Part shown: positions 1,775 to 20,000 of the stretch, piece by piece
Layout: every line of letters starts with the position of its first letter
Position numbering within the stretch: the first letter of the stretch is position 1
From: an uncultured virus (IMG/VR IMGVR_UViG_3300030419_004292)
Taxonomy: Duplodnaviria; Heunggongvirae; Uroviricota; Caudoviricetes
Direction: 5' to 3' (one strand)
Length of the DNA: 20,000 nt
IMG/VR virus record: IMGVR_UViG_3300030419_004292
Program-made: the position numbers and the translations under genes
The notes under the pieces: generated by a model
Databases searched by the model: none
Told to the model about the DNA's origin: nothing
What the model saw: only the letters and a program-made list of their open reading frames with translations

Positions 1775-3964
1775 TCACTTATTTTCCATAGAGATGGCAT
1801 AAGCAGACGATTGAATTTGACGCATTTCTTCTATAGAGGGCTGCTTTTCATTCAACTCCACAAAATCCTGCTTTAGATTTTTACAGGCGGATGTCATTTC
1901 TGCGGTAATGGGAGTACCATCGTCCAACAATTCCTTAACGACCGTTGGATCTACCTCCATATACGGCTCCATGCCGCACAAAACGCACAGCTTAATATAT
2001 TCTAGTTCATCCATTTGAGACTTAGTTAAACTGCGTACATTTTTTTTGTCGTAGTGAGAAAGGAGGGCTGGAGTTATGAGATCAGCAATTTTTTTCTGAG
2101 CATCGTTAGCCCATAAAATAATATTAACTAGATCAGCGCTAGTTCTCGGTTTAACTTCTTTTTGCTTTCTTTTTTGCTGGTCTTTAGAATTTCTCGGTCT
2201 GCCGTCTTCGGGTCGACCAACAGGCTTCTGCTTCTGCTGCATTTGAAAATCTCTCTCTTCCTTGAGCTTTCTTTCTTCCTCTGCCTTATCATATTTTGGC
2301 CGGTCAGCAGGCATGGTAAGAGGATGATCCCCGGCTTCATCGGCTGGAATTATACCGAGATCGTGTGGAGCAACCGTATCTTTACCCAAAGCAATTTTCT
2401 CCAAATCTTCTCTGTGTTGCGGATTGTGATATGGGCTGGCTTTAGATGGCAAAGTTTCCATGTTTCTACTTCTTGCCTCTCTCTTAACCCTGATCTTTTC
2501 GATCTCTGGAAGCTCACCGAATCTTTCTACAATGGTTTCATCACTAACAATGTTTCTATCTGCCAATTGAATCAACAGAGTCTTTTCTGCTGCTTCATCG
2601 GATAGAATCATTTGATCAAAATGAATCTTTGCTGGAAATCTAAATCCCATAGCCTTTTGAACAATTTCAATTTCCGAATTCCAAAACTCAGTCAAAACAT
2701 CTCTACCATACTCCAGTCTTTCAACTAAAGTCTTAAGGGAGATAAAGTTGTTTGTGAATCCTCCACCATTGCTAGCCAGACCGGTTAGAGTTGGAGGAAT
2801 ACCAAGTCCTGCGTAGATATTATTTAGAACTGGCTTATATTTTTCTTCCCCCAAGAACCGGAAAACCTGCGTGCTGGATTCTTTGAAATCAAGTTCTGGA
2901 CCCCATACGAGATCCATAGTTCCCCCACCAACATTACTAGCAAGAATATTTCTTAGCTTGTTGATGGCGGCTTTCGTCGGGAGAATCTTTTCTTCTAGAC
3001 TGCCAAGCTTCCAAAGTCTGATATTGGAAATGGCTCCATCTAACGCGGCGATATCAGCTAGCTTCATTTTTTCTAGCATCATAATATCGTCTAAGATAGC
3101 GTAGATCATTGGATTGGACCAAAGCATCCAATCATCTTTTTTATAATAATAAGCAGACACCTTTTCCTCGTCTAGAGGAATAAGTTGATCACCGTTTTTG
3201 AGTCTTTGACTTATGTCCTTTGGTAGTGCTGACAAAAGATACTTGTTATTTCCCACCTTGTCGTTGACCATGTTACGAACCATCTTAGACACACGTAACG
3301 CAAACTTAGGTTGTCCGACAAAAGTTGACAGGTAATCATCTCCGATTACCTCTACAGACAAGGGGTTTAAAATATCATATTGCCAAGGAATAACCCTGCT
3401 CTGCACCTTGATATCTTCTATCTTCATATCGGGGGCAGCGGCAGTCTTTCGCATCTCCTGCTCTTTACGCGCACTTAACTTGGCGGTACGCCTCTTAACT
3501 ATGACGTTGCCACACCTATAAAGAGTGTTGAGAAATCTTTCTGATCTCGCCTTGCCGTCGACCTTAGAGAACCACTTCTTGTAGAACTTCTCTATGTTTT
3601 TATTTGGATGTACTAATGTAATCCCCTGAGATGAAAAGTCACCCATCAAGTCTATAACGTTACGAATAATGCCCACTCTATCATAGGCATCCATACACAT
3701 CTTGATGATATCTTTTTGTCTTTTCGGGGTCGCTTCAGAAGCTCTAAATCTATTGTAATCCTGTCTACCAAACTCTGGACGAACAGACCTGTTTGGCTCT
3801 ATATCTAGAAAATTACGATACCCAAAAGCTTGTGCCTTCTGAATGCCATCATAATAATCTACAGATTCAGAAAAACTGCCCAAAGCCTGATGCTTCTCGG
3901 ATTCACTATTCCAAGTTACAAAGGCTGGTTCTGGAGAGTGATTTTTGATTATCTCGTCTGCCAT
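1775..3964 (-). CDS. Probable portal protein (729 aa)
   Basis: Lies between terminase large subunit and protease. Helical core of portal-like size with a GLGIPPTL motif and a charged low-complexity C-terminal extension. The call is mainly syntenic. Confidence 0.7.
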   Translation of the reverse strand: MADEIIKNHSPEPAFVTWNSESEKHQALGSFSESVDYYDGIQKAQAFGYRNFLDIEPNRSVRPEFGRQDYNRFRASEATPKRQKDIIKMCMDAYDRVGIIRNVIDLMGDFSSQGITLVHPNKNIEKFYKKWFSKVDGKARSERFLNTLYRCGNVIVKRRTAKLSARKEQEMRKTAAAPDMKIEDIKVQSRVIPWQYDILNPLSVEVIGDDYLSTFVGQPKFALRVSKMVRNMVNDKVGNNKYLLSALPKDISQRLKNGDQLIPLDEEKVSAYYYKKDDWMLWSNPMIYAILDDIMMLEKMKLADIAALDGAISNIRLWKLGSLEEKILPTKAAINKLRNILASNVGGGTMDLVWGPELDFKESSTQVFRFLGEEKYKPVLNNIYAGLGIPPTLTGLASNGGGFTNNFISLKTLVERLEYGRDVLTEFWNSEIEIVQKAMGFRFPAKIHFDQMILSDEAAEKTLLIQLADRNIVSDETIVERFGELPEIEKIRVKREARSRNMETLPSKASPYHNPQHREDLEKIALGKDTVAPHDLGIIPADEAGDHPLTMPADRPKYDKAEEERKLKEERDFQMQQKQKPVGRPEDGRPRNSKDQQKRKQKEVKPRTSADLVNIILWANDAQKKIADLITPALLSHYDKKNVRSLTKSQMDELEYIKLCVLCGMEPYMEVDPTVVKELLDDGTPITAEMTSACKNLKQDFVELNEKQPSIEEMRQIQSSAYAISMENK

Positions 3965-7262: not shown

Positions 7263-7512
7263 TTGGTTTAATCCTCTCGACCTTCTTAACTGAAATATTC
7301 TCTTTTATAAATATAACGAATTTTTTCCTAGTTGAGTTCCTCTTTAGCTTATAAATATTTTGGCAAATCTCCTCTATCGCTTTTTTACAAGCATCGTCTG
7401 GATCAATTGCCTCGATATACACAAAAGCTATTTTGTTTTTATATATTCTAATATTTTTTTTCTTAAGCTCTGTAAGAACTTTCGACATATCTACTGTGAC
7501 TTTGTATATCAT
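7252..7512 (-). CDS. Small basic hypothetical protein (86 aa)
   Basis: Fills the gap in a tightly packed operon; Lys-rich with an EAIDPDDAC motif. Confidence 0.6.
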   Translation of the reverse strand: MIYKVTVDMSKVLTELKKKNIRIYKNKIAFVYIEAIDPDDACKKAIEEICQNIYKLKRNSTRKKFVIFIKENISVKKVERIKPNGK

Positions 7513-8587
7513 TTTTAACCATACGTTCTACTAGTTGACTAAAAGATATGTTAGGTTCCCATCCTAGCTTATCCTTAGCCTTACAATAGCTCCCCTTGAG
7601 ATAAGGAACTTCGCACGGCCTAAAAAATTCTGGATCGATGACTACGTATTGTTTGTAGTCTTCAATATCAATACACTTAAATGCCACTTCAAGGAAGTTT
7701 CTTATGGAATATGCCTCTCCAGTGGCTATAACATAATCGTCTGGAACATCCTGCTGTAACATCAGCCACATTGCGTAAACGTAGTCTTCAGCATGACCCC
7801 AATCCCTGTACGCATCCAAATTACCCAATCTCAACTTTGGAAATGAAGGATTCCTTACGGCGTCCAGAAACATTCTTTCTTGTGGAATTCCTATATCTTC
7901 ATATGTGTTGTCAAATGTGAACCTGTCGCCTTTTGATGGTAGTTCTATAGCGCTTTCTTTTTCCCAATTAATAAACTCTCCAATCCACTTTGTTATCTTT
8001 CTAGTTACAAATTTCTCTCCCCTTCTTTCGCTCTCATGATTAAACAAGATGCCACAACTTCCATGGAGATTATAAGACTCTCTATAAACCCTAACCAAGT
8101 TGTGTGCTGCCAGCTTTGCTACAGCATAGGGGGAATTAGGTGAAAACTCCGTAAGCTCATCTTGATACTTATCATCTTCATCATATGTAAAATTACTACC
8201 AAACATTTCACTTGAGCTTGCTTGATAGAATCTAATGCTATTGTCGATAGAATTTATTGCCTCTAGTATATTCAGACACCCTTTAGCTGTTATGTCCCAT
8301 GTCAAACTCGCTTGCTTGAAAGAAGTTCCTACATGTGACTGAGCCGCCAAGTTATAGATCTCCTGCGGCCTATACTCCATAATGAAGTTGCTCACACAGA
8401 AAGCGTCTGTAATATCCCCTTCTTTAAAGATGAAATTTTTATTTTTTAGAACCTCAGTTAATCTCTCTGTGTTATCGGTACTAGACCTTCTAGAAACCCC
8501 AACAACCTTATAGTCCTTTTTGAGTAACAGTTCCGCCAAATAAGATCCGTCTTGTCCAGTTACTCCAAAAACAATCGCCGTCCTCAT
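7463..8587 (-). CDS. gmd: GDP-mannose 4,6-dehydratase
   Basis: GVTGQDGSYLAELLL, NLAAQSHV, YQASSSEMFG, SPYAVAK, LFNHESERRG.KFVTRKI and LGNLDAYRDWGHAEDYV motifs. AAGGAG 7 nt upstream of ATG 8587. Confidence 0.96.
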   Translation of the reverse strand: MRTAIVFGVTGQDGSYLAELLLKKDYKVVGVSRRSSTDNTERLTEVLKNKNFIFKEGDITDAFCVSNFIMEYRPQEIYNLAAQSHVGTSFKQASLTWDITAKGCLNILEAINSIDNSIRFYQASSSEMFGSNFTYDEDDKYQDELTEFSPNSPYAVAKLAAHNLVRVYRESYNLHGSCGILFNHESERRGEKFVTRKITKWIGEFINWEKESAIELPSKGDRFTFDNTYEDIGIPQERMFLDAVRNPSFPKLRLGNLDAYRDWGHAEDYVYAMWLMLQQDVPDDYVIATGEAYSIRNFLEVAFKCIDIEDYKQYVVIDPEFFRPCEVPYLKGSYCKAKDKLGWEPNISFSQLVERMVKNDIQSHSRYVESSYRA

Positions 8588-8589
8588 TC

Positions 8590-9171
8590 TCACTCTCCTT
8601 TATCCGGTAACTTAGTTGGAGGTAGTTCCTGAAATGTGATACCTCCATTTTTTGTAAGACTTCCGCCCCCCTGACCTCCTGTCTCTCCACCATCTCCCAT
8701 TGGCCCTTCTGAGCCGTCTCCTTCGCCCTCCTTAGCCTCCCCCATTCCGTTCTTGCCCACGACACCCTTTCCAGCTTGAAGGCGTTCTAGAGCCTCCTGA
8801 GCGCGTTCATGGAGTTCTCTGTCATAGGGTAACTTGTAAGCTCTTGGAGCGTCTGTATCGTCCTTCTCAAAAGAAAGCCACCATTCACCCTTTTTTTCTT
8901 CAGCTTCAAGTCTTTCAGCCCAGATATACACAGCCCCTTCTCCCCCCTTCTTGTCTGGTTCTTCTATCACTATCCAATGAACTCTAAATTCTTCTGGCAA
9001 AGAAGTATTAGAAGGCCAACCTTCAAAATTCTCTAGAGAGAAGTTGATAGACAGACAGAAGTAAAGGGCCGCAGCTATAGTTGCCGCTTTTAGTCCCCAC
9101 ATTCCACGAGAACCTATAACGAACCATAGAACAAGGCTAATAATTATAATGAAAGATGCGATTATTATCAT
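8590..9171 (-). CDS. Membrane protein with two N-terminal TM helices and a Gly-rich C-terminus (193 aa); third gene of the ExbB/ExbD-like module
   Basis: Hydrophobic residues ~1-45, a soluble GWP...IYW-like/PRAYKLPY domain and a Gly/Glu-rich tail. ATGA overlap with the upstream gene. Confidence 0.75.
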   Translation of the reverse strand: MIIIASFIIIISLVLWFVIGSRGMWGLKAATIAAALYFCLSINFSLENFEGWPSNTSLPEEFRVHWIVIEEPDKKGGEGAVYIWAERLEAEEKKGEWWLSFEKDDTDAPRAYKLPYDRELHERAQEALERLQAGKGVVGKNGMGEAKEGEGDGSEGPMGDGGETGGQGGGSLTKNGGITFQELPPTKLPDKGE

Positions 9172-9773
9172 AGTGGCGTTTGCTGTCCTTTAACAGCTAA
9201 TTTTTTTGGTAACTCATTTACATCCACAACTTTACCCTCGTTATCTAGAGTAAATCTAAAGGCTGTCTCCTCGTCTCCGGTAACTCTTAGTACAACCCTC
9301 TTGATTGTGACCGTCTTGTATGGGTTAAGTTTTTCCAACTTTATAACAACCGGAATCTCTGTTGCGGTACTACGCTTCATGTAGAGATGAACGTTTACAA
9401 TATACTCGCCCTTGGCTATCCCTCTTAAAGTAACTAACTCTCTATTCTCTGTATATTCTATAACCCCAAACTCTGTCAAGACACTATCGTTTCTATGTCC
9501 CAAATCATCTCTATCCAAATGCATCAAGCCTTCTTCTCTTCTCATGAAGGCTACTAAATTTCCACTGGGGTCTTCTACGTATGTATCAACATCGTCATCC
9601 AAATCACTTGGCCACTCAACGACCACCATAAACTCTGCTTTTGTTTCAGTATTGTTTTCTTGTTTGGTTGGGTTTATTAAAACTATAGCCAAAACAAAAA
9701 ATGCGGCGAAAGCCAATAAAGTGTTAAATAGTAAATCTAGGAACGCTAGATTAGTATGATAATTTCGCTTCAT
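9168..9773 (-). CDS. ExbD/MotB-like single-TM protein with intramembrane Asp and a YfaP/DUF2135-like beta domain
   Basis: TM segment LAFLDLLFNTLLAFAAFFVLAIVLINP with Asp near its start; soluble motif W...DDDVDTYVEDPSG...LDRDDLG...E.VTL...GEYIVNVHLY. Start placed at MKRNYH. Confidence 0.65.
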   Translation of the reverse strand: MKRNYHTNLAFLDLLFNTLLAFAAFFVLAIVLINPTKQENNTETKAEFMVVVEWPSDLDDDVDTYVEDPSGNLVAFMRREEGLMHLDRDDLGHRNDSVLTEFGVIEYTENRELVTLRGIAKGEYIVNVHLYMKRSTATEIPVVIKLEKLNPYKTVTIKRVVLRVTGDEETAFRFTLDNEGKVVDVNELPKKLAVKGQQTPL

Positions 9774-10278
9774 TTTTCTGGACCCTATCAACAGCTTGGT
9801 TAAGGTTAAAGTATTGAATCTTAAGCAATAAGCTACAGATTAGTCCTGCTAAAGTCGTATAGAGTGCTGTAGACATACCAGTCCCCAACTCTTTGATAAG
9901 AGCCTGAACTGTGTCTATTTCCGATATGTCGAGATTGGCGAATCCAGATAGCATCATAATAAAACCAATTACGGTTCCCACCATACCCACGGTTAGGCAA
10001 AGATCACTCGTAAACCAGCCTATCTCCGTGAGATGCTCTATATGCTCCACTAGACCCTTCTTAGGCTCCTCGCTGTCTACTATCTTACTCATTTGCCATG
10101 TTTTGTATCCACACCACACAGACATGAATGCAAGGACTCCAAACAGGAGGAAGCTTAGCTTTGTGACATCATTCTCCCAAACTGTATGAACCAGCCCTCT
10201 AGTAAAGGCAAATATTGAGGCAACAATGACTATTGTAAAAAATAGCCACCATTTAAGGAAAAGAGTGTGTTTAATCAT
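9751..10278 (-). CDS. MotA/TolQ/ExbB proton-channel family protein (175 aa)
   Basis: Signatures VGMVGTVIGFIMML and GMSTALYTTLAGLICS, plus two N-terminal TM helices. Confidence 0.85.
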   Translation of the reverse strand: MIKHTLFLKWWLFFTIVIVASIFAFTRGLVHTVWENDVTKLSFLLFGVLAFMSVWCGYKTWQMSKIVDSEEPKKGLVEHIEHLTEIGWFTSDLCLTVGMVGTVIGFIMMLSGFANLDISEIDTVQALIKELGTGMSTALYTTLAGLICSLLLKIQYFNLNQAVDRVQKNEAKLSY

Positions 10279-11071
10279 CTTCGACGGTCTCCGGTGTTAA
10301 AAACGGTTGATCAATTAGACCATCTTCGTATTTATGGAATTCAGACAGCCTTACTTTTTCTTTCTCCATAGCTAATCTCATCTTTTCCATATTCGCCCCA
10401 ATTTCCTTTCTCATGCCCTTGTCTTGGATTAGCGCTCTAACCCATGCGGCAAAAGTTTCCTTGGAGTCCTCTAGAATTTTAATTCTCTGTTCTCTAGTAC
10501 CCTTAAGCTCCTTAAGCATCGTATTTTTTTTAGACTGCATCTCTTTGTAATCCTTGCCCAATGATTCTTGGGCAGCCCTCAAAACGGCGATCTGTCTCTC
10601 CATGTTCAGAATGTAGTCTCTATCTCGTTCGTCTCTATCTTTTTGTTTTTCAGTCAGGATAAGCATCTCCATGTCCCCTATGTCGTTCATGGACTTCTGC
10701 TGCTCTTTTAGTGTCCTGTTCATAAGTATATCTAGCTTGATAACATCTACCACTTGCATTTCTTCCGTATGAAATACATCGTCTTTAAACTGAGATATCA
10801 TTTCAGTCCAATGGAATAAAAACATTTCTAATTCTTCATCATTAAACTGAGATCTTAAATCCTTCCAGTAAGGACGGGACTTTAGATCGTACTCTGCATT
10901 TCTCAGTGCTTCTTCTTGTTTAGATATGCCCTTACCCAACTTTGTCTTAATAAAATTATCTACACTGGATGCATCTCGATCCAGAGCCTCTGCGATCTTT
11001 TCGAGGGGCATAGTCTCGCAATTCTGCTCGATAAATTGCTGCTCTTCTTTGCTAAATCTTCCCTTCTTCAT
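10271..11071 (-). CDS. HTH/Myb-like N-terminus plus coiled-coil protein (266 aa); candidate terminase small subunit or regulator
   Basis: GRFSKEEQQFIEQNCETMPLEKIAEALDRDASSV resembles an HTH; the remainder is helical coiled coil. Confidence 0.5.
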   Translation of the reverse strand: MKKGRFSKEEQQFIEQNCETMPLEKIAEALDRDASSVDNFIKTKLGKGISKQEEALRNAEYDLKSRPYWKDLRSQFNDEELEMFLFHWTEMISQFKDDVFHTEEMQVVDVIKLDILMNRTLKEQQKSMNDIGDMEMLILTEKQKDRDERDRDYILNMERQIAVLRAAQESLGKDYKEMQSKKNTMLKELKGTREQRIKILEDSKETFAAWVRALIQDKGMRKEIGANMEKMRLAMEKEKVRLSEFHKYEDGLIDQPFLTPETVEDD

Positions 11072-11600
11072 CCAAATTCTCTCTAAGCAGGTCTCGGATT
11101 GTTTCTATGATTTCATCTCGTCGCGGTTTCGGTACATGCACGCCATGAAGCATTCGCAGGTAATCGCCCCTGTATGACATATCCAGATGCCGGTCTATAA
11201 ACTCTAAGTATTCTTTCGTATGAATAACATCTATGAAGTCGTCTGGCTGCTTCATGCTGTCGCTTGAGTAATCCATGACTTTATCCAGATTCACTGGCTC
11301 CATCAGGGATTTCTTAGCCATCTTGCGCACATCCTTGTTCCAAGGCTTCTCAGGTTCGTATCTAATGTAATTATCCCGCTTAAAGTTTTTCAGGCGGTTC
11401 TTTATGTGTACAAATAAGAAGTTCTCTAGAGGACGCTTTTCGTCGTAACGGTCGAGCGCCTCCATACCTATAATAAAAGCCTCCTGTTCAATGTCTTCGA
11501 CATCGTAGAAGGCAAACTTGAAATTATATGATACGCGCCGCACAACCTTCTGAATCGTCTCTATAACTTCCTCTTCAGTCATGTTCTTCGGTATCTTCAT
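11052..11600 (-). CDS. Phage-encoded RNA polymerase sigma-70-like factor
   Basis: Region-2-like DVEDIEQEAFIIGMEALDRYDEKRPLENFLFVHIKNRLKNFKR. Start uncertain (11600-11612). Confidence 0.72.
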   Translation of the reverse strand: MKIPKNMTEEEVIETIQKVVRRVSYNFKFAFYDVEDIEQEAFIIGMEALDRYDEKRPLENFLFVHIKNRLKNFKRDNYIRYEPEKPWNKDVRKMAKKSLMEPVNLDKVMDYSSDSMKQPDDFIDVIHTKEYLEFIDRHLDMSYRGDYLRMLHGVHVPKPRRDEIIETIRDLLRENLDEEGKI

Positions 11601-11739
11601 CTTCACCATCATCGTTATCGATAAACTCCGCTAGACTCTTTCCTTCAGGATCTTTGGCCTCCATGTCCTTCTCTACGGATCTCTCAAGATCTGCTGATGC
11701 CTTGGTGTGCATCTCACTTTCTACTCTCTTACCCTTCAT
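11575..11739 (-). CDS. Small acidic hypothetical protein (54 aa)
   Basis: ATG at 11739 preceded by a G-rich SD-like sequence; first gene of the minus-strand operon. Confidence 0.5.
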   Translation of the reverse strand: MKGKRVESEMHTKASADLERSVEKDMEAKDPEGKSLAEFIDNDDGEDEDTEEHD

Positions 11740-12020: not shown

Positions 12021-15000
12021 GTGGGTGACGTAGATCAAACTAAAACCAAGATAACCGATGGTGGTTATACTACGGAGATAACAGAAAAAGTAGAGGAAAA
12101 CCTCGGCACAGAGACTGATGTCAGTCCGTGTGATACTTACTGTACATATACATGGAATGGTACATTTCCCGAATGTACATCGGCAGGAACTATAACCAAT
12201 GCTATCGGAAACTATGACAAGGCGTCTGACAACTGCCCTGATGCTACTCAAACAGCGGGACAGGGCACCGTCGATTCAAGCCGATGTAGTTGTCCACCCA
12301 TCGGAGCCGTGGGGGGATCTGTCAATCCGGTCACCGGAAACGTCGTCGGTGGCCTCCTCAGTCACCCAATAACGCAAGATATTCAAAACATGTGGAGTGG
12401 AGGGCAGCCGCCCACAGTTTTACACACCTACAACACAGTAACCAGAGACTTATCGGCTTGCGGCGGGGACGCAGCAGCAAAGTTTGTAGATAGTATCTCG
12501 TTCAAGTGCCACGATGCCCACTATATCCCCCCGCCTGCCGCGCCAACTCCAACCCCCGAAGAACCATCTCCAGATGAAGACGATTGTTATTACTCTGAGT
12601 GTTACTACGCATGGGATGGTTCTAGGTACGTGTTCACGGATGAATGCTCCTCCCTCCCCTGTCAGTGTCCCGCCGGTGGAATAGCACAGTCTCTTTTTGA
12701 TCTAGCTACTGGACAACTTACAGTACAAGATATAGCTAACGACGCTGGAGTTATTGGTCCCGGTCCATTTCTTCCAAGCTTTCTCGGCCTCGAATATATC
12801 AATGCGGGCACAGAACCCGCTAACGCAGCGGATCTAGTCGCTAGAGCGTCATGGGATTGCAAAGGTTCCAATTTAGACCCCACTGACCCCGCCCCAGAAC
12901 CCCCTCCGGGCGACGATGCGGAACCCGATGGAGACTGTACCGGGAGTTGTACGTGGGAGTGGACATGGGGAGACGCGAGCCTTCCGGGGTCAGGTGGCGA
13001 ATATAAAGTAACCAGTAATGACTGTAGCGGTGAGGGCTGTGGTTGTATATGGCCCGGCGCGTGGGCAATAACGACTTACTATGGACTTACTCCAGTAACG
13101 GGAAATCTTACCGAGAATTGCGAGCCAACCACCAGCACTGGTTTCACCGACTGCGATATATCAGCGGCTACAAACGTTCCCGGTCTAAAGGTGAGTGGGT
13201 CGAGAAGTGGCAACCCGTTTAATGCGGATGACTGGTTTAAAAGCGGTACAATAAGAAGTGTAACCGCCCCCTGTAGAAAAGGAGGGGCCGAACCTCCTGT
13301 AGCACCACCCCCCTCCGATGATTGCGAACAGGAAGCCTGTATTTATAGGTGGAGTGGCGAGATGGACCCATTTACTGGGACACCCGCCACTTACATGGGG
13401 GGTGGCGGTTTCAATGATTACTTTAGATATGGCGGGACTGTATTTTTCGGGGGTTTAGATCCTTCTAAGCTAGATCCCGGATCACAAGGCAGTATTGTAT
13501 GCTGTTGGCCAAGTTTCGGAAATAAACCTGTTTGTCAAGCTCATATAAAAGGATGCACGCTAGATATATCCGGGCAACCAAGAGATATGTCTGGGGTTGG
13601 GAGTGGTCCATACGGACCCGGCGATGGATATGCGTTACATCGCAAGTGTGGCGGTGTCACTCCCGGTTCCAACATTCAAAACAAATGCGGATGCGACACA
13701 ACCCATGCGTTATATAAAATGGCCGAAGAAGGTGCTACGCAACAATGGATGGGTAATCCATTTGGTGGATCGTCTATAGATCAAGCTACGGGCGCTCCAA
13801 AAAATGTAGAAGCCAATCGTTTATCACAAGTTAGCTGCGTAACTGCTGACGAAGAGGCTGTGACGGGAGATCTAGAAGGAGGGGCGGCGAGTGTTGTTGA
13901 TGGGGCTTCCGATAAGGCACATGCAGCGCCAATATCAACCGGGGAAAAACCCGTCAAAGATGACATCGTGAGTGTGGATATTCCAACCAGAACACCAACA
14001 GACGATGTTAATACCGAAAGCGGTCATCAAAATTGCATGGAGTCTAACCAGAACTCCAATGCAGTACAGCAAGTAACAAATCAGGCGGGAGCAGGATGCT
14101 TTGATTGTCCTCCAAGGGTGGGGCAAAGGCTTGTGGCTGGGACCACGGTTTCGGGAGTTAGTGTCGGGGACTCCGATGGTGAGGGTGGAACATATGCGGA
14201 GGGTGATTGTGTTGTGTCGTCAAGCTCTGAATTCACGAAGGGTGGGTCGTTACGCTTTGATAAACAAAAATATGTGGCGACGGCGTTAACTGAAGTATCA
14301 AACTTCCAAGCAATGCAAAATGACAAGAATTATGTGCAGATTAGGGGCGGAAATTATCCAGAGCAAAGGTATCCTTCGCATGATACTAATGGGAACGCTA
14401 TAGAGAACACCCTTGATAACAGAAGGAGATTTAGATCAAAGGGTAACTTCCTATCGGGATTCACTGTAGATGATATTAGTGTCACCCCGAATTCTTCTAA
14501 TAAAGACAAGTATGACATTACTATTAGTTACAGAAACAGAAATAACGAACCTGCTCGTGATCCAGTAGTACAACAGGCCGTGTGGAATGAAACTCTGTCT
14601 GGTCTTAATAATGGTTCTGACATTTACTTGGCTCCCACCGGAATCATTCCTTCTCCCGATGGAGGTGGCCATGGAAGAAAGACTGACCGATATCCGTGTA
14701 AGAGTACCAGATGTATCTATAAGTTTATAGTGGCAGAAGAAAGATACGAACTTTCGACGGGATGTGGAAAAGCCACTTGCGAGTGCGATCCAGAAGCCGA
14801 GGTGGTACAACTTGTGGCTTCAGGTAAAACTGGCAAGCACATTGGAGATACGGCGGCTGCGAAGTGCGTAAAGAAAAAGCCTACCACCCCGCCCGGTTTT
14901 CCTCCAATTACACCTCCTGAACCACCGCCTCCACCAAGTGGAGAACCGCCTCGCATCGATCCACCTGTATTTGAAGACAACAATCCTCCAGTAGCAGGAA

Positions 15001-15663: not shown

Positions 15664-15894
15664 ATGCATATTTACGAATCAAAATTCGAATACGACAACA
15701 AGTTTATCTATACAGACGTATTCTATTCAGAAACGGACAAACTTTTTTACATAAGCCAATGTAAAACAGATAAAGATCAAACAATTCTGTCCACGCAGAA
15801 CACGGAACTGACTCTTGGACAGATAGCGAAAATATCGGAAGCGGCAGGACGTGTCTATTTAATGGATTTTCTAGATGATTATAAAATCGAATGA
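15664..15894 (+). CDS. Hypothetical protein (76 aa, MHIYESKFEY...)
   Basis: ATG shortly after the upstream stop; overlaps the start of the next gene. Confidence 0.6.
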   Translation: MHIYESKFEYDNKFIYTDVFYSETDKLFYISQCKTDKDQTILSTQNTELTLGQIAKISEAAGRVYLMDFLDDYKIE

Positions 15895-16918
15895 TATTAT
15901 CGAATCGGATGTGTGGAAAAAAATAGCTAATTGCCACTACGCAGGAGGCAATCTTCCCCCCAAGGGTCTCGTTCACTGTCGAGTAAAGTACCTTTACGAG
16001 TTTTTACAAAGGTGTGGGCAAGAAAAAGGGGCGGGGCCGTATGTGTTGGTTACGAGCGATGAAGATTATGGGGTTGTTTATCAGGATAGACACCCGGTTT
16101 GGCGGGATGTATTAAAATACGTGGCGATGAGACACTTCAGGGACAAGCTGGGAATGATGGCTGCTGCGGAATTGGCGGCGTATCGGGCGGGATCGCGGGT
16201 AATGAGAAATCCAGAGGACAAGACGGGAATTGATCCATCTGAGAACGAGGGTGGATACAGTGACGTGATTATTCCGGCACGGTGTGATGCGAGACAGTGT
16301 AATGTGAAACACTTGTACTCTTTTAAAACTTATGCGCACACTGAATTGACTTTCGACAGACTGCCAAGTAATATAAGTCACTGGTTCGCAGTGAATAGTG
16401 CGGTCGAAGAGGATTTTCTGACGCCAATACCGCTAGGAGTGCAGAGGGGGCAAGCAGAATTGTTGGGCAGTATAGAAAGGGGGGCGGGGAACCTCCTGTA
16501 TATCAACTTCAGCATGTATACGAAGCCGAGACTTGATGCGCTCAACTACTTTTCGATGAAAGAGTACGACTGGGTGACACTGGTTAAGGATCAGGGGCGC
16601 ACGGAGGGGGAATTTTTAGAAGATATCGCATCTCATGACTTCGTTCTGTGTCCACAGGGGAACGGGGTGGATACGTACCGGCTGTGGCAGACGCTTTACT
16701 TGGGATCGATACCGATAGTGAACAGCACGATGCAAGAAAGTTTCTTTAGCGAGTTGCCAATTATGTGGTGCGAGGACTTGGATGCGATAAAGCCGGGTCC
16801 GTTAGGAAGCGCCAAGGAGTTGGCTCCTAAGCTGCCTGTGAGCTTCGAGAAGGCACGCTTATCCTACTGGAAGGGTCAGATAGCGGATAAGGTGCGCGAG
16901 GCGTTAGAAGGGGCGTAG
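15875..16918 (+). CDS. Exostosin (GT47)-like glycosyltransferase (347 aa)
   Basis: C-terminal FVLCPQGNGVDTYRLWQTLYLGSIPIV signature, with upstream PIPLG and LLYINF motifs. Confidence 0.78.
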   Translation: MIIKSNDIIESDVWKKIANCHYAGGNLPPKGLVHCRVKYLYEFLQRCGQEKGAGPYVLVTSDEDYGVVYQDRHPVWRDVLKYVAMRHFRDKLGMMAAAELAAYRAGSRVMRNPEDKTGIDPSENEGGYSDVIIPARCDARQCNVKHLYSFKTYAHTELTFDRLPSNISHWFAVNSAVEEDFLTPIPLGVQRGQAELLGSIERGAGNLLYINFSMYTKPRLDALNYFSMKEYDWVTLVKDQGRTEGEFLEDIASHDFVLCPQGNGVDTYRLWQTLYLGSIPIVNSTMQESFFSELPIMWCEDLDAIKPGPLGSAKELAPKLPVSFEKARLSYWKGQIADKVREALEGA

Positions 16919-16978
16919 GGGATTAGTTTAGGTAAGACATTGAAAATTCTGCCGACTTAATTTTGTCTGCACCACCCC

Positions 16979-17225
16979 GGCAATTTGGGTAAAATAGGGA
17001 GGATAGGCAGGGTAGCGAAAAAGCACCCTATGGGGGGGGAGGGGGGTGTTGGGGGTTTGGGGGGTTTGCCTAGTCTGCGACGACTGGGGAAACGTGGCGG
17101 TTTGGGGATTCTGGGGTGACCGACCGCCAGCCAGTCAGCAGGCCAGAAAGTGTAGCATATTGCTATACCATATGTGGTATGCGAGACGACGAATTGCCCA
17201 TCTTGCCCATCTTACCCAGAGTGCC
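16979..17225. repeat. Imperfect 31-bp inverted repeat (16979-17009 / 17195-17225) enclosing a G-rich tract
   Basis: GGCAATTTGGGTAAAATAGGGAGGATAGGCA versus the reverse complement of the right arm, GGCACTCTGGGTAAGATGGGCAAGATGGGCA (24/31). The right arm contains tandem TGCCCATCT(T) units. Confidence 0.6.
17032..17064 (+). other. G-quadruplex-forming motif G8-A-G6-TGTT-G5-TTT-G6
   Basis: Four G-runs of 5 or more with 1-4 nt loops, in intergenic sequence. Confidence 0.7.
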
Positions 17226-17255
17226 AAATGGGAATTCCGAGGATTTTTCGGAAAC

Positions 17256-17284
17256 CCGAACTCGTTACGTGGCAACGACTTACG
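17256..17284. repeat. Palindromic 11-7-11 site 1
   Basis: CCGAACTCGTT ACGTGGC AACGACTTACG. Confidence 0.75.
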
Positions 17285-17362
17285 TCGAATTGTATCAAAG
17301 TAATACACTGTCATAATGGCCGAAAACGGCGTTTTTCCCCGTTGCCAAAATGGCAGTTTTGA

Positions 17363-17391
17363 CGTAACTCATTGACTACCAACGACTTACG
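17363..17391. repeat. Palindromic 11-7-11 site 2
   Basis: CGTAACTCATT GACTACC AACGACTTACG. Confidence 0.85.
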
Positions 17392-17458
17392 GAAAGCGGA
17401 CGGCAAAAACCCGTTTCTGTATAGGTAGAGAGCCGAATAAAACGCAACGGAGAAAGCC

Positions 17459-17644
17459 ATGACGATCAAAGAAGGCGACAGAGTGAGACTGACGGACGGA
17501 CGGACGGCCAACGTGCTGAGCGTGATCACCGCTCCCGGTTGGGACAACATGCTACTGGTCGACGAAGGCCACATGACCCGCGAGGGGTTCGCCATGGGGA
17601 CGTGGCAGCACGTCCACGCCGAGGACGTGGAGGTGGTCAGCTAG
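17459..17644 (+). CDS. Small hypothetical protein (61 aa), SH3/KOW-like beta pattern
   Basis: GGAG RBS upstream; IKEGDRVRLTDGRTANVLSV pattern. Confidence 0.7.
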   Translation: MTIKEGDRVRLTDGRTANVLSVITAPGWDNMLLVDEGHMTREGFAMGTWQHVHAEDVEVVS

Positions 17645-17646
17645 GG

Positions 17647-17675
17647 TTTACAGTCAGTCGGTCAGTCGCTACAAT
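17647..17675 (+). promoter_or_regulatory. Sigma70-type promoter TTTACA-N17-TACAAT
   Basis: Near-consensus hexamers with 17-bp spacing, followed by an AC-rich leader and AAGGGC. Confidence 0.75.
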
Positions 17676-17712
17676 CAACCAGTCAGACAACAACACTACC
17701 AAGGGCAAAACT

Positions 17713-18015
17713 ATGACAGTCATCAACGTCGACAATCTGGAACAGATTCAAGTCCTGCCGATGGACTTCGCTTGGCAGTCAGGCGACACCGATGCCGCCG
17801 GGAATCCGGTTCCTCTGCGGTTTGAAAAGCCAGACCACCAGTACGTCAGCGAGGCGATACTGGAGGCGGCGGTTCTCCGAGTCGGGATCGGTGACAACGT
17901 CACCAAACGAGATCTCACTGACGAGGAAGTGGACTGGGTGAACGAGAACGAACCGGAGTGGGTGGCCGAGATCTGTGACGAGGAATGGCAGCAAGAGAAC
18001 AACCCCGAGTACTAG
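17713..18015 (+). CDS. Highly acidic small protein (100 aa, MTVINVDNLE...)
   Basis: Leader CAAGGGCAAAACT-ATG shared with the other cassettes; D/E-rich C-terminus. Confidence 0.75.
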   Translation: MTVINVDNLEQIQVLPMDFAWQSGDTDAAGNPVPLRFEKPDHQYVSEAILEAAVLRVGIGDNVTKRDLTDEEVDWVNENEPEWVAEICDEEWQQENNPEY

Positions 18016-18186
18016 TCGGGGTGTGCGGCGACGGGCGAAAGCTCCCCAAGCTCCGGGGTCGGCCCGTACTAGCTAAGCTAGCCGCATGGCTATGGGTGGC
18101 TATAGTCAGCAGTCAGCGAGGTCAGAGTATCACCTAAGCCAGCCGCTTGGGCTACATGTGGCGAAGCCAGCTATCTAGCGTTGTGC

Positions 18187-18424
18187 GACCTTTGAAGCAT
18201 TGTTAGTTACCAAACGACGTAAGTACTTGTCAGATAACGACTTACAACAATTCGCGGCGGCGAATTGACGTAACTCCTTTGATACCAACGACTTACGACG
18301 ATTCATAATTAACTTTTATTTACCTCGATTTTGTTCACGTTTGGCACGGAATTACTTTGGAGAAAATTCCGTTATCTGTGGAGATTGGGGTTGTGCAATG
18401 CCGATAAGTTTGTATAATGGGGGC
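18187..18424 (+). repeat. Composite direct repeat copy A: paired 11-7-11 sites (18218-18246, 18269-18297), TTTGGCACGG box, promoter
   Basis: Aligns with 19579-19850 at a constant 1392-bp offset across both sites; the 22-bp linker contains CAATTCGCGGCGGCG in both copies. Confidence 0.85.
18391..18418 (+). promoter_or_regulatory. Sigma70-type promoter TTGTGC-N16-TATAAT
   Basis: Perfect -10 hexamer; shares CGATAAG spacer motif and downstream GGGGG with the promoter at 19817-19844. Confidence 0.65.
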
Positions 18425-18448
18425 ATGACAAGCGCAAAGGGAGAAACG

Positions 18449-18616
18449 ATGAACGCAAACAGCTACTATGGCTCAATCGCAAACTATCTTCTCCGCAAGT
18501 ATCAACCGACGACGGTTGAAGGCTTGACGTTGCTCATGATTCGGCATGGTCGTTTTGTCCGATTCGTGGCGAGAGAGTGGGCAGAGAAAAGTTTTGAGAA
18601 TCGTCAGAAAAGCTAA
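18449..18616 (+). CDS. Small hypothetical protein (55 aa, MNANSYYG...)
   Basis: AAGGGAG RBS before the ATG, downstream of the promoter. Confidence 0.7.
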   Translation: MNANSYYGSIANYLLRKYQPTTVEGLTLLMIRHGRFVRFVAREWAEKSFENRQKS

Positions 18617-18625
18617 CGACTAGGG

Positions 18626-18654
18626 TTGACAACGGCGGGCATACTTGACACAAT
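18626..18654 (+). promoter_or_regulatory. Sigma70-type promoter TTGACA-N17-CACAAT
   Basis: Repeat of the cassette promoter (GGCGGGC.TACTTG spacer) followed by an ACACAC leader. Confidence 0.7.
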
Positions 18655-18685
18655 ACACACACACAACACACACAAGGGCAACACA

Positions 18686-18925
18686 ATGACAACCACCATC
18701 ATCGACGCACTGATCGCACTGGCCGCACTCGCACTGATCGTGGTTCCGATACTGCTGATTGCGGTTCAGGACTTCTGCCGATTCAACCCGTTCAAGCCGA
18801 CCAACAAGCACAAGCGGTTCGGTGTGGATAGTGATTACATGGCAGCGGTGAAGGGCGGAAGCAAGACACTGGCCGAGTATCACCGCAAGGCACTGGCCGA
18901 AGGCGTTGAACGACGCAAGTGGTAG
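18686..18925 (+). CDS. Small membrane protein (79 aa, MTTTIIDALIALAALALIVVPILLIAV...)
   Basis: Conserved leader ACACAAGGGCAACACA-ATG; N-terminal TM helix. Confidence 0.8.
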   Translation: MTTTIIDALIALAALALIVVPILLIAVQDFCRFNPFKPTNKHKRFGVDSDYMAAVKGGSKTLAEYHRKALAEGVERRKW

Positions 18926-18927
18926 GC

Positions 18928-18956
18928 TTGACGGTGGCGGGCGTACTTGGTACAAT
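18928..18956 (+). promoter_or_regulatory. Sigma70-type promoter TTGACG-N17-TACAAT
   Basis: Near-consensus; begins 2 nt after the upstream stop codon. Confidence 0.8.
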
Positions 18957-18989
18957 ACACTCTCACAACAACGACACAAGGGCAACACA

Positions 18990-19061
18990 ATGACAACCTT
19001 CACAATCGTCGCCATCATCGCCATCTGCTACGAGGCCGCACTTGGCAATGCGGACTGGTGA
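18990..19061 (+). CDS. 23-aa hydrophobic micropeptide MTTFTIVAIIAICYEAALGNADW
   Basis: Has its own promoter and the conserved leader ACACAAGGGCAACACA-ATG; below the ORF-track cutoff. Confidence 0.6.
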   Translation: MTTFTIVAIIAICYEAALGNADW

Positions 19062-19113
19062 GACGTGGGCTGGCGGGCCTATATCGCTGTCCAACACACA
19101 CAAGGGTAACACA

Positions 19114-19272
19114 ATGCTGACCATCGACAACGCAACAGTTCAGACACTTGACCAAACACAAGCCCGCCCAACGGGCAAGACAGTATTGAGTGTGACAATT
19201 GGTGATCACACGTTCGATATGCTGGTCGATGAGGATGAGTTGATTCAGGCTCTTGCATCACAGCACGCTTGA
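19114..19272 (+). CDS. Small hypothetical protein (52 aa, MLTIDNATVQ...)
   Basis: Leader ACACACAAGGGTAACACA-ATG. Confidence 0.72.
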   Translation: MLTIDNATVQTLDQTQARPTGKTVLSVTIGDHTFDMLVDEDELIQALASQHA

Positions 19273-19296
19273 CACTCACCACGTACTTGGTACAAT
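19269..19296 (+). promoter_or_regulatory. Sigma70-type promoter TTGACA-N16-TACAAT
   Basis: The -35 hexamer overlaps the upstream TGA stop; shares CGTACTTGGTACAATACAC with 18942-18960. Confidence 0.78.
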
Positions 19297-19326
19297 ACAC
19301 ACACACAACACGACAAGGGCAACACA

Positions 19327-19443
19327 ATGACAATCGCACGCTTCACCAACTACATCCGATACAGCACCACTTGCCCCACGGGTATCACTTCCGCACGATG
19401 GGGTGGCATGCTCAAGTGGGCACGCACTAACGGCTACCTGTAG
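19327..19443 (+). CDS. 38-aa peptide MTIARFTNYIRYSTTCPTGITSARWGGMLKWARTNGYL
   Basis: Has its own promoter and the conserved leader ACAAGGGCAACACA-ATG. Confidence 0.65.
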   Translation: MTIARFTNYIRYSTTCPTGITSARWGGMLKWARTNGYL

Positions 19444-19453
19444 GGTGTACCAC

Positions 19454-19554
19454 CTAACCCTGCCCCCTAACCTTGCCCGTGGGGGGTGGGGTTAGTAGCT
19501 GGGAGTGGCCTATCTAATCCTACCCCCTAAGCCGGCCTATGGTGGTGGGGTGAG
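19454..19554 (+). repeat. Two tandem imperfect hairpins with a 60-bp period; possible terminator or processing sites
   Basis: CTAACCCTGCCCCC...GGGGGTGGGGTTAG (19454-19495, 14-bp stem with two G-U pairs) and CTAATCCTACCCCC...GGTGGTGGGGTGAG (19514-19554). Confidence 0.55.
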
Positions 19555-19578
19555 TGTGGCCCGTTTATAGCCCTGTTT

Positions 19579-19850
19579 GACCTTTGGAGAATAGTTAATT
19601 AACAATTGACGTAAGTGGTTGGTACTAAAGGACTTATGGCAATTCGCGGCGGCGGTTTGACGTAAACCCTTGTCAGATAACGACTTACGTCGATTTGAAA
19701 TTAACTTTTGAATTTGGGCATTTTTATTCACGTTTGGCACGGCATTTTGTGACGGTTTGGCACGGTATTACTTTGAAAAAATGGCCGAATTGACCCCCTG
19801 AGAATGGTGCTTGGGCTTTACTTCTGACGATAAGTAACTATAATGGGGGA
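19579..19850 (+). repeat. Composite direct repeat copy B: paired 11-7-11 sites (19610-19638, 19661-19689), two TTTGGCACGG boxes, promoter TTTACT-N16-TATAAT (19817-19844)
   Basis: Homologous to 18187-18424. Confidence 0.85.
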
Positions 19851-19884
19851 CATACGACACGCAACCAACACAAGGGCAAACACA

Positions 19885-20000
19885 ATGCAACACAAACCGA
19901 AGACAGGCGACTTGTTCGACATGGGGCCAAGCGGAAACTACAAGTTGGTCCCGCTGAAGGCTCACCGACACTACAAGCGAATCACCATCCTGCACGAGAA
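19885..20000 (+). CDS. Small hypothetical protein, partial (MQHKPKTGDLFDMGPSGNYKLVPLKAHRHYKRITILHE...)
   Basis: Leader ACACAAGGGCAAACACA-ATG; open to the window end. Confidence 0.68.
   Translation, partial: MQHKPKTGDLFDMGPSGNYKLVPLKAHRHYKRITILHE

Follow-up and report, generated by a model that had tools for sequence, protein, structure and literature searches.

The window analysed here is a stretch of 20,000 nucleotides of DNA from an uncultured virus of the class Caudoviricetes (IMG/VR record IMGVR_UViG_3300030419_004292). Towards its end, in a region of very small genes, it carries six 29-bp palindromic sites, most of which are arranged in close pairs. Judging from the conserved letters of these sites and their placement in front of promoters, we lean towards the view that each pair is a composite binding site, with four half-sites, for a sequence-specific DNA-binding protein, and that it belongs to a regulatory cassette similar to the PeSL cassettes of T4-type phages. 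The element, which has the consensus YGTAAgtcsTT-N7-AAsgACTTAsR, is common to many uncultured large phages. The family is widespread and apparently undescribed, and a literature search for palindrome pairs, in which most subscription journals were not covered, found no description of it. A preliminary description of this DNA had taken the sites for the crossover sites of a recombinase and had named operators for a dimeric protein as the alternative; it is the alternative that is best supported, by the absence of compensatory changes between the arms and by the phasing of the sites with promoters.

Palindromic sites in the window and in other phages

The region 16800-20000 was read directly, and the previously given starts of the six 29-bp sites (17256, 17363, 18218, 18269, 19610 and 19661) and their 7-bp cores proved correct. 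All six are composed of inverted arms in an 11-7-11 arrangement. A two-arm weight matrix, trained on sites from relatives and applied to the whole 20 kb at a threshold of 12 bits or more, gave exactly these six sites and 0 in 20 shuffles; all of them start at or beyond 17256, in agreement with the earlier remark that the first 17 kb holds none. The right arm AASGACTTACG, with at most one mismatch, has 10 matches in the window against 0.50 expected, a number reached by 0 of 200 shuffles. Nine of these ten matches are within 17274-19689, and the tenth, at 13070, has no left arm. The sites had been described as three pairs, which holds for pairs 2 and 3, whose members are 51 bp apart from start to start, but not fully for sites 1 and 2, which are 107 bp apart and form a non-standard pair. 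In the weight matrix the left arm of site 1 is weak (5.9 bits, 8 of 11 letters) and its right arm strong (19.9 bits), while the arms of site 2 score 15.8 and 19.9 bits. A small palindrome is found between these two sites, just upstream of site 2 (Table 1), and words of the form TGCCA-N3-TGGCA also adjoin sites in two other contigs (loci L060 and L135, with L136 listed too).

When a collection of viral contigs was scanned with the pattern CGTAA-N13-AACGACTTA, at least 166 loci were found. Among the matches listed there were 182 distinct sites, with T10 present in 146 and T11 in 165 of them, both being positions that the search pattern had left free. The symmetry often extends one base further inward, as 12-5-12, with G12 in 106 and C18 in 111 of the 182 sites among the matches listed. 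Since letters left free by the pattern are conserved, most of the matches must be true members of the family and not chance occurrences. Spacings of less than 200 bp between neighbours, counted at the level of loci with overlapping loci included, were 50 bp in 73 cases and 53 bp in 71 among the matches listed. A further class of arrays, with pairs 42 bp apart, was seen in L232, L288 and L289, in bins labelled Enterobacterales and others, and accounts for 19 such spacings among the matches listed.

In five complete genomes of 166-231 kb the strict symmetric pattern occurs 19, 6, 17, 25 and 9 times, against 0, 0, 0, 0 and 1 for a reversed control, and in each genome the sites are confined to one stretch of 17-20 kb. 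Measured with the weight matrix, the spacing within pairs is exactly 53 bp in the phages G009, G017 and G021 and exactly 50 bp in G024 and G025, compared with 51 bp in the window, and the pairs of these five phages follow each other at a density of one per 0.9-1.5 kb. The large terminase (TerL) of the window is 68% identical to that of G011 and G018, 55% to that of G017, 27% to that of G024 and 23% to that of phage DLP6. G024 and G017 have 35 ORFs (open reading frames) in common, including a DnaE-type polymerase, DnaB, a primase and a sigma-like protein. The low terminase identity to G024, taken with the comparison of G024 and G017, implies that the element spans at least two deep lineages. 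The stretch itself is present in marine metagenomes, in 20 of the 24 sequencing runs listed, with no RNA run among them.

A related word was also found in a cultured phage. According to Peters et al. 2017 (PMC5349666), Stenotrophomonas maltophilia phage DLP6 has 25 "phage promoters" detected with PHIRE, 22 of which occur "in groups of two in front of a gene cluster". In the DLP6 genome the half-site AACGACTTA occurs 21 times forward and 3 times in reverse, against 0 and 1 for the control, and the palindrome pattern has 0 matches. Here the half-sites stand 25 bp from each other in direct repetition (CCCTGTAAAATCAACGACTTA twice), with a G+C hairpin, CTTTACTT and GGTATAAT behind them. Such direct repeats of the half-site indicate that the recognition unit is the half-site, which can be used in direct or in inverted arrangement. 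By BLASTP, DLP6 has almost nothing else in common with the other lineages.

Anatomy of the cassettes

An alignment of 13 cassettes of G017 and 73 oriented cassettes of 31 contigs gave a common order of parts. First comes the stop of the gene upstream, in many cases accompanied by a small G+C hairpin, and then (T)TGA and the upstream site of the pair (site A), a G+C-rich spacer of 21-24 bp, the downstream site (site B) and an A/T-rich stretch. Some cassettes have extra words before the promoter, namely GCAAA-N5-GTGCCAA, TTGGCACGG-N4-TTGC or TGCCA-N3-TGGCA. The promoter is of sigma-70 type, often TTGACA-N17-TAGAAT, with TG before the -10 and GCCGATAA in its spacer, and the cassette ends in a leader and small ORFs on the strand of the promoter. 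Among the cassette ORFs, 12 of 71 had a match in Pfam (E up to 0.01), and 0 of the 7 in the window.

Words of the TTTGGCACGG or GCAAA-N5-GTGCCAA kind lie between pair and promoter in the window, at 3042-3081 of the locus L002 and in the cassettes of G017; they occur in either orientation and at times as an inverted pair, and are possibly a second operator.

Protein-binding site or hairpin

Across 50 oriented pairs, nine columns are invariant. When the 50 oriented pairs of the 53-bp class are taken as two local hairpins, 74.0% of the cells pair, against 74.7% with shuffled partners (467 of 500 shuffles as high), and when they are taken as one long hairpin the figures are 74.8% and 75.0% (328 of 500). 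At several stem positions the pairing is absent from 30-42 of the 50 sequences, and a separate count on 194 pairs likewise found no compensatory change. Furthermore, the preferred letters differ from arm to arm, being ACCC in the left and GTCC in the right arm of site A, and GTSC in the left and GTCG in the right arm of site B. The lack of compensatory change together with these arm-specific letters suggests that the pairing simply follows from a conserved symmetric consensus, as in a protein site.

The second line of evidence is the geometry between pair and promoter. The distances from the end of site B to the -35 fall into classes near 18, 27-30, 37-40 and 46-54 bp, which hold 38 of the 41 cassettes, from 21 contigs, with a distance of up to 60 bp. 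For these 41 cassettes the Rayleigh R is 0.66 at a period of 10.5 bp, with 0 of 5000 uniform draws as high, a statistic that is inflated to some degree as cassettes of related phages are not independent. The same distance classes repeat inside single genomes and across both lineages. Promoters also orient the pairs: with a promoter taken as at least 10 of the 12 consensus letters, 73 of the 130 pairs with enough flanking sequence have one on one side only and 2 on both sides. Symmetric and conserved half-sites, no compensatory change and a fixed geometry to the promoter are the features of an operator for a dimer, and all three were found here.

Most simply, one dimer would bind each palindrome and two dimers each pair. 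In a large family of uncultured phages (marine and aquatic, 166-232 kb), about 16 such cassettes punctuate a single 17-20 kb region of small orphan genes, and the window contains the first three. We infer the binding of a protein, the identity of the binder and the direction of its effect on transcription; the bound protein may set the downstream promoter, by shut-off or by stimulation from one face of the helix, or may insulate the units from each other. The cassettes may also double as places where modules are swapped, most likely through ordinary homologous recombination as in the PeSL cassettes of T4-type phages, because they are the sole conserved sequence in a fast-changing region.

Several observations weigh against such a composite binding site. 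In addition to the dependence among cassettes noted above, 55 of the 130 pairs have no strong consensus promoter nearby, and the distances from pair to promoter vary between 4 and 227 bp. BLASTP showed no DNA-binding protein shared by lineage I, lineage II and DLP6, and a gene for HU or IHF was found in 0 of the 26 site-bearing contigs. A structural role is conceivable, given that the 82-bp pair also folds as one long hairpin, in which the outer arms pair with each other, the inner arms pair with each other and the spacer lies on top; the z-scores are -4.3, -6.1 and -4.2 for the window and, for relatives, -1.8, -4.8 and -2.1. Finally, the conserved blocks between G024 and G025 run approximately from a promoter to just past the next pair, which would fit a 3'-end element of the upstream unit no less than a site upstream of the next promoter.

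A different role was also considered, in which the 82-bp pair acts as a nucleic-acid structure, a long hairpin or cruciform that serves in termination, insulation, protection of RNA 3' ends or RNase processing, much like the stem-loop of PeSL or a REPIN doublet in form. The minimum-energy fold is indeed one long hairpin, strongly so in four of the six cases, the spacer is G+C-rich and often self-complementary, and the homology blocks of G024 and G025 stop just past a pair as if it were part of the upstream unit. In DLP6 the authors (PMC5349666) counted the G+C hairpin behind the repeats as a rho-independent terminator, and in bacteria palindromes of this pattern lie 4-20 nt past the 3' end of a tRNA or tmRNA at no fewer than eight loci. 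Nevertheless, in 50 pairs shuffling the partners gives pairing that is at least as good, at several positions of the stem 60-84% of the sequences have a mismatch, the sequence itself is conserved over phages of 39-46% G+C, the window sites have no T run behind them, and a search of 16800-20000 against Rfam returned no family at E up to 1. Phasing with promoters would not be expected of an RNA element either. A structural role seems rather unlikely, if still worth a place beside the protein site. A REP or REPIN element with its RAYT protein was also considered and rejected: the fold is present, but compensatory change is not, and the Y1 transposase (PF01797) occurs in 0 of the 26 contigs.

Candidate binding proteins

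If a protein does bind the pairs, it may be supplied by the host. IHF has the core consensus WATCAANNNNTTR, and a host nucleoid protein of the IHF/HU kind could bind the palindrome as a symmetric double IHF site and bend the DNA to tune early promoters, which would change the identity of the binder and not the kind of element. For this consensus, 71 of 240 half-sites of the 50-bp class match at 9 of 9 letters and 167 of 240 at 8 or more, AAATCAACGACTTA stands in every DLP6 unit read, and the half-sites of the window match at 5-8 of 9 letters. As expected of a binder that the host provides, the motif is common to lineages with almost no shared genes, and the phage contigs themselves have no HU/IHF gene (0 of 26); a palindrome of this kind is also found upstream of a transposase promoter, and in six copies, in one Verrucomicrobiae chromosome. 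The 53-bp class fits poorly, however, with full matches in 17 of 388 half-sites and a mean of 6.2 of 9 letters, 5 of which are already part of the definition of a site. The letters that are free in the IHF consensus (ACTTA and the outer CG) are the most conserved ones here. We regard a nucleoid protein as a possible binder but not as a probable one.

A phage-encoded candidate was sought near the array. P0001, a protein of 266 residues (window 10271-11071, minus strand), has an N-terminus like a helix-turn-helix and a long coiled coil. The gene of a sigma-like protein (186 residues, Sigma70_r2) overlaps the start of the P0001 gene by 20 bases, the two lying within 10271-11612 on the minus strand, and this gene pair stands beside the array in 13 of 26 contigs. 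P0001 had no match in Pfam or the PDB, and neither the 50-bp clade nor DLP6 gave a hit with its profile. At the corresponding position G024 has a protein of 370 residues with a similar N-terminal word, one gene away from TerL. The place of P0001 near the terminase would suit a small terminase subunit at least as well as a binder, and P0001 could also be the partner of the sigma-like protein.

It may even be speculated that a single protein, be it a nucleoid protein of the host or a small regulator that has moved between unrelated phages, recognises the element in two uncultured marine groups and, as direct repeats, in the T4-type phage DLP6, and that it couples the stop of the upstream unit, the next early promoter and a protein-held synapsis for the exchange of modules. 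This we consider improbable; were it true, the early region would be an integron-like cassette platform that works with no integrase. The CIRCE operator of HrcA was compared and rejected, as the shared word AGCACT is in the opposite arm.

Palindromes in bacterial genomes

The symmetric pattern was also found in bacterial genomes, at no fewer than 124 loci, many of them in Planctomycetota bins, against a rough random expectation of about 9. The set is heterogeneous and pointed to no clear host or factor. It includes mis-binned phage arrays (L228/229, L232, L249, L265 and L288) and single intergenic palindromes beside housekeeping genes. Among 60 loci scanned with ARAGORN, 7 have the palindrome 4-20 nt past the 3' end of a tRNA or tmRNA, to which the tmRNA locus L279, found with Rfam, is added. 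These palindromes, of the form CGTAAGT..TT-N7-AA..ACTTACG, are in L221 and L279 (Planctomycetota), L215, L218, L239, L260, L263 and L268, in several phyla and always on the 3' side. In the Verrucomicrobiae chromosome mentioned above (G029), one perfect palindrome is present in six copies in either orientation, one of which (L235, 1501-1529) precedes a DDE transposase gene by about 80 bp, the interval containing a TTGACT word. The sites of one Acidobacteria genome recall the BirA operator (TGTAAACC-N-GGTTTACA).

Modules and recombination

That the sites divide the region into modules, as first described, is borne out by relatives. The array region of the window aligns with that of its nearest relatives, G018 and G011, at the pair elements only, and homology breaks just after the sites. 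Between G024 and G025, which share blocks of 85-91% identity, 5 of 10 blocks end 3-29 bp past a site in both genomes (p about 1e-4). G025 also has one extra module between two pairs, and there the switch of homology lies at the right arm or edge of site B.

Tyrosine-recombinase core sites such as dif, pdif, loxP and FRT have inverted arms of 11-13 bp around a spacer of 6-8 bp, and the 11-7-11 layout is the same as theirs. Likewise, two inverted "simple sites" with a variable spacer resemble the layout of the integron attC. Borders of modules match the sites, the extra module of G025 is bounded by pairs, and the ends of the homology blocks cluster behind sites. Within the window, sites 3 and 6, which are the upstream member of pair 2 and the downstream member of pair 3, have the common core GTCAGAT in direct orientation, are 1443 bp apart and have five small ORFs between them, exactly as had been noticed. 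On such grounds one might propose a site-specific recombinase, from the phage or the host and of Xer, integron or another type, for which the sites would serve in crossover and which would excise and insert the gene modules.

The claim that tyrosine recombination at these sites drives an exchange of cassettes found no support, however. As already stated for this DNA, the window has no recombinase, none being present among the 15 large ORFs scanned against Pfam. Profiles for the tyrosine recombinase (PF00589), the serine recombinase (PF00239) and the Y1 transposase each had 0 matches in the 26 site-bearing contigs, including 0 in 7 complete genomes, and were positive in 14, 12 and 6 of 14 control genomes; the search covered phage contigs, and an enzyme of the host is conceivable. 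The cores are mostly unique, with 100 distinct ones in 140 sites from six genomes or regions. Pairs of sites with a shared core number 5 of 496, 2 of 561 and 1 of 465 in lineage I, about half of them inverted, and 1 of 15 in the window, namely sites 3 and 6. GTCAGAT or ATCAGAT recurs in other phages, which suggests a favoured centre and not a private crossover sequence. Moreover, the symmetry enters the "core" (G12, C18) and leaves little polarity, and the position of the sites is fixed and phased relative to promoters. Breakpoints had been expected inside the 7-bp cores, but in G024 and G025 they fall after the site.

Contigs of four sequencing runs were also inspected. The exact 1443-bp deletion between sites 3 and 6 is not among the joints listed, which, coming from contigs only, is no evidence of its absence. 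Many joints are at repeats, with other letters between or with short sides, and are best read as other cassettes that share the repeats, that is, as replacements and not as the precise deletion. The depth in one run (X1) was 167 at 18278-18411 and about 22 alongside, which counts neither for nor against excision. Taken together, a recombinase acting at these sites is highly unlikely, and the layout appears to be a look-alike of a recombinase site, which corrects the first claim made for this DNA. A gene cassette of an integron was rejected as well. An integron has an integrase, promoterless cassettes and the core sites RYYYAAC / GTTRRRY, whereas no integrase is found in the contigs and every module has its own promoter or promoters.

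Promoters, genes and other features of the window

The features of the array region are collected in Table 1.

Table 1. Sites, promoters and small-gene modules in the last part of the window
Feature	Position	Strand	Description	Basis
Site 1	17256..17284	.	Weak left arm, strong right arm	Read + weight matrix
Small palindrome	17343..17355	.	TGCCA-AAA-TGGCA, between sites 1 and 2	Read by eye, no statistics
Site 2	17363..17391	.		Read + weight matrix
Module 1	17459..18015	+	Two small ORFs: 17459-17644, 17713-18015; no Pfam or PHROG family	
Site 3	18218..18246	.	A (upstream) member of pair 2, core GTCAGAT	Read + weight matrix
Pair 2 spacer	18247..18268	.	G+C-rich, self-complementary, CAATTCGC-GGCG-GCGAATTG	Read + folding
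Site 4	18269..18297	.	B (downstream) member of pair 2	Read + weight matrix
TTTGGCACGG word	18340..18349, 19733-19742, 19756-19765	+	Like a sigma-54 -24, without GC at -12	3 matches vs 1.18 expected; 24 of 200 shuffles reach 3, not significant alone
Promoter after pair 2	18391..18418	+	Sigma-70-type, TTGTGC-16-TATAAT, spacer GCCGATAAG as in relatives	Read; homologous promoters in relatives; under threshold of promoter scan
Module 2	18449..19443	+	Five small ORFs: 18449-18616, 18686-18925, 18990-19061, 19114-19272, 19327-19443; no family	
Site 5	19610..19638	.	A member of pair 3	Read + weight matrix
Pair 3 spacer	19639..19660	.	G+C-rich	Read + folding
Site 6	19661..19689	.	B member of pair 3, core GTCAGAT	Read + weight matrix
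Promoter after pair 3	19817..19844	+	Sigma-70-type, TTTACT-16-TATAAT, like the CTTTACTT...GGTATAAT promoters of phage DLP6	Promoter scan
Module 3	19885..20000	+	First ORF, continues past the end of the window	Read

All small ORFs of the array region are on the plus strand, as are the sigma-70-type promoter matches near the array, of which there are 7 against 2.2 ± 1.8 in shuffles. The two promoters that follow pairs 2 and 3 have in common the word GATAAG in the spacer and the end TATAATGGGGG. Promoters are also found inside the modules: the second ORF of module 1 has its own at 17647-17675, and module 2 has internal ones at 18626, 18928 and 19269. These form a second promoter family, without palindromes (17647-17675, 18626-18654, 18928-18956 and 19269-19296), with the form TTGACR-N17-TACAAT followed by a ACACACAAGGGCAACACAATG leader, and a member of it precedes almost every one of the very small ORFs.

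Since good sigma-54-type words stand behind some pairs (TTTGGCACGGCTTTTGC in L002, CTGGCACGATTTTTGCA and TTTGGCACGGTATTTGC in G017) and TTTGGCACGG stands behind pairs 2 and 3 of the window, the pairs might be taken for upstream activating (enhancer) sites of a sigma-54 activator that serves TGGCAC-N5-TTGC promoters between pair and genes, but this is scarcely credible, as the GC at -12, which a GG-N10-GC promoter requires, is absent from all three window copies and the count of the word is not significant, 7 of the 73 oriented cassettes have the word forward and 13 have it reversed, matches to the activator family PF00158 are weak, in 7 of 26 contigs, with the one checked (in G024) being a RuvB-like AAA+ protein, and most cassettes have a sigma-70-type promoter only.

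In the first 17 kb of the window, Pfam identifies the large terminase, a nuclease of ERCC4 type and an HNH protein, while several further proteins match no family. Between the packaging genes and the array there are genes for a GDP-mannose 4,6-dehydratase (7463-8593), a MotA/ExbB-like channel protein (9751-10278) and a glycosyltransferase-like protein of 347 residues (15875-16918). A search for related loci with the last of these found none. The nearest record, G001, of 8 kb, contains no site and does not match 16900-20000. A G-rich tract at 17032-17068, with runs of 5-8 G (GGGGGGGGAGGGGGGTGTTGGGGGTTTGGGGGGTTTG), borders the block of large genes and the array, and contigs of run X1 break there (16998 and 17040). 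With regard to cultured phages, blastn of 16900-20000 and of the consensus pair gave no match, and tblastn of TerL, of a portal-like protein of 729 residues and of P0001 gave distant matches or none, with no close cultured relative.

Comparison with known systems

The element provides the one conserved landmark in a region of about 20 kb of tiny orphan genes, which are probably genes for host take-over or anti-defence, in large uncultured marine phages. It is strict enough to locate this region, to orient its units and to delimit its modules in metagenomic contigs, as in the 166 or more loci of the viral collection. The 82-bp pair is a defined bait in a search for the regulator, and a half-site version of it exists in the cultured phage DLP6.

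Like dif, pdif, loxP and FRT, the sites have 11-bp inverted arms and a 7-bp centre and flank gene modules of about 1 kb, and like the integron attC, each element has two palindromic units. Unlike dif and its kind, they come with no recombinase in the phage contigs, their centres are variable and non-polar, and the modules have their own promoters, with which the sites are phased. Regulators that act at many operators are known in phages, such as C1 of P1 with its operators, gp71 of mycobacteriophage L5 with its "stoperators" and p4 of phi29 with its site pairs. The element here is similar to these in being a short conserved intergenic site repeated at many units, the sites being at times in pairs that bend or loop the DNA, but it is located upstream of the promoter and not over it, and the phages described here have no sign of lysogeny, with no integrase in 26 contigs.

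Like the element described here, the "phage promoters" of DLP6 have the core word AACGACTTA, occur twice per cassette and before gene clusters, and lie beside a G+C hairpin and a -35/-10 promoter. In DLP6, however, the words are on one strand as direct repeats, and the cassettes are genome-wide and control large operons. The DLP6 words, which were read as promoters by the authors, lie upstream of a -35/-10, which suggests that this is the real promoter.

The cassettes also resemble the PeSL (promoter-early stem-loop) cassettes of the T4-type phages RB49 and phi1, in which modules are shuffled, and mini-circles produced, through recombination from cassette to cassette (Arbiol et al. 2010, PMC2839356). 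As described there, PeSL are intergenic repeats that combine a strong promoter of sigma-70-like type with an upstream A/T-rich stretch and with a stem-loop in which G-rich sequence is followed by C-rich sequence, and they are concentrated in hyperplastic regions, before small orphan genes and at the borders of insertions, deletions and replacements. A sigma-70-like promoter, a G/C-rich stem-loop, an A/T-rich stretch, orphan genes and a plastic region were all found here. Two differences stand out: here two conserved 29-bp palindromes at a fixed spacing of 50-53 bp enclose the stem-loop, with no compensatory change, and the phages are not T4-type, the TerL of the window being 23% identical to that of DLP6. 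The comparison suggests that the shuffling of small genes through "regulatory cassettes", as described in T4-type phages, is spread far more widely than those phages.

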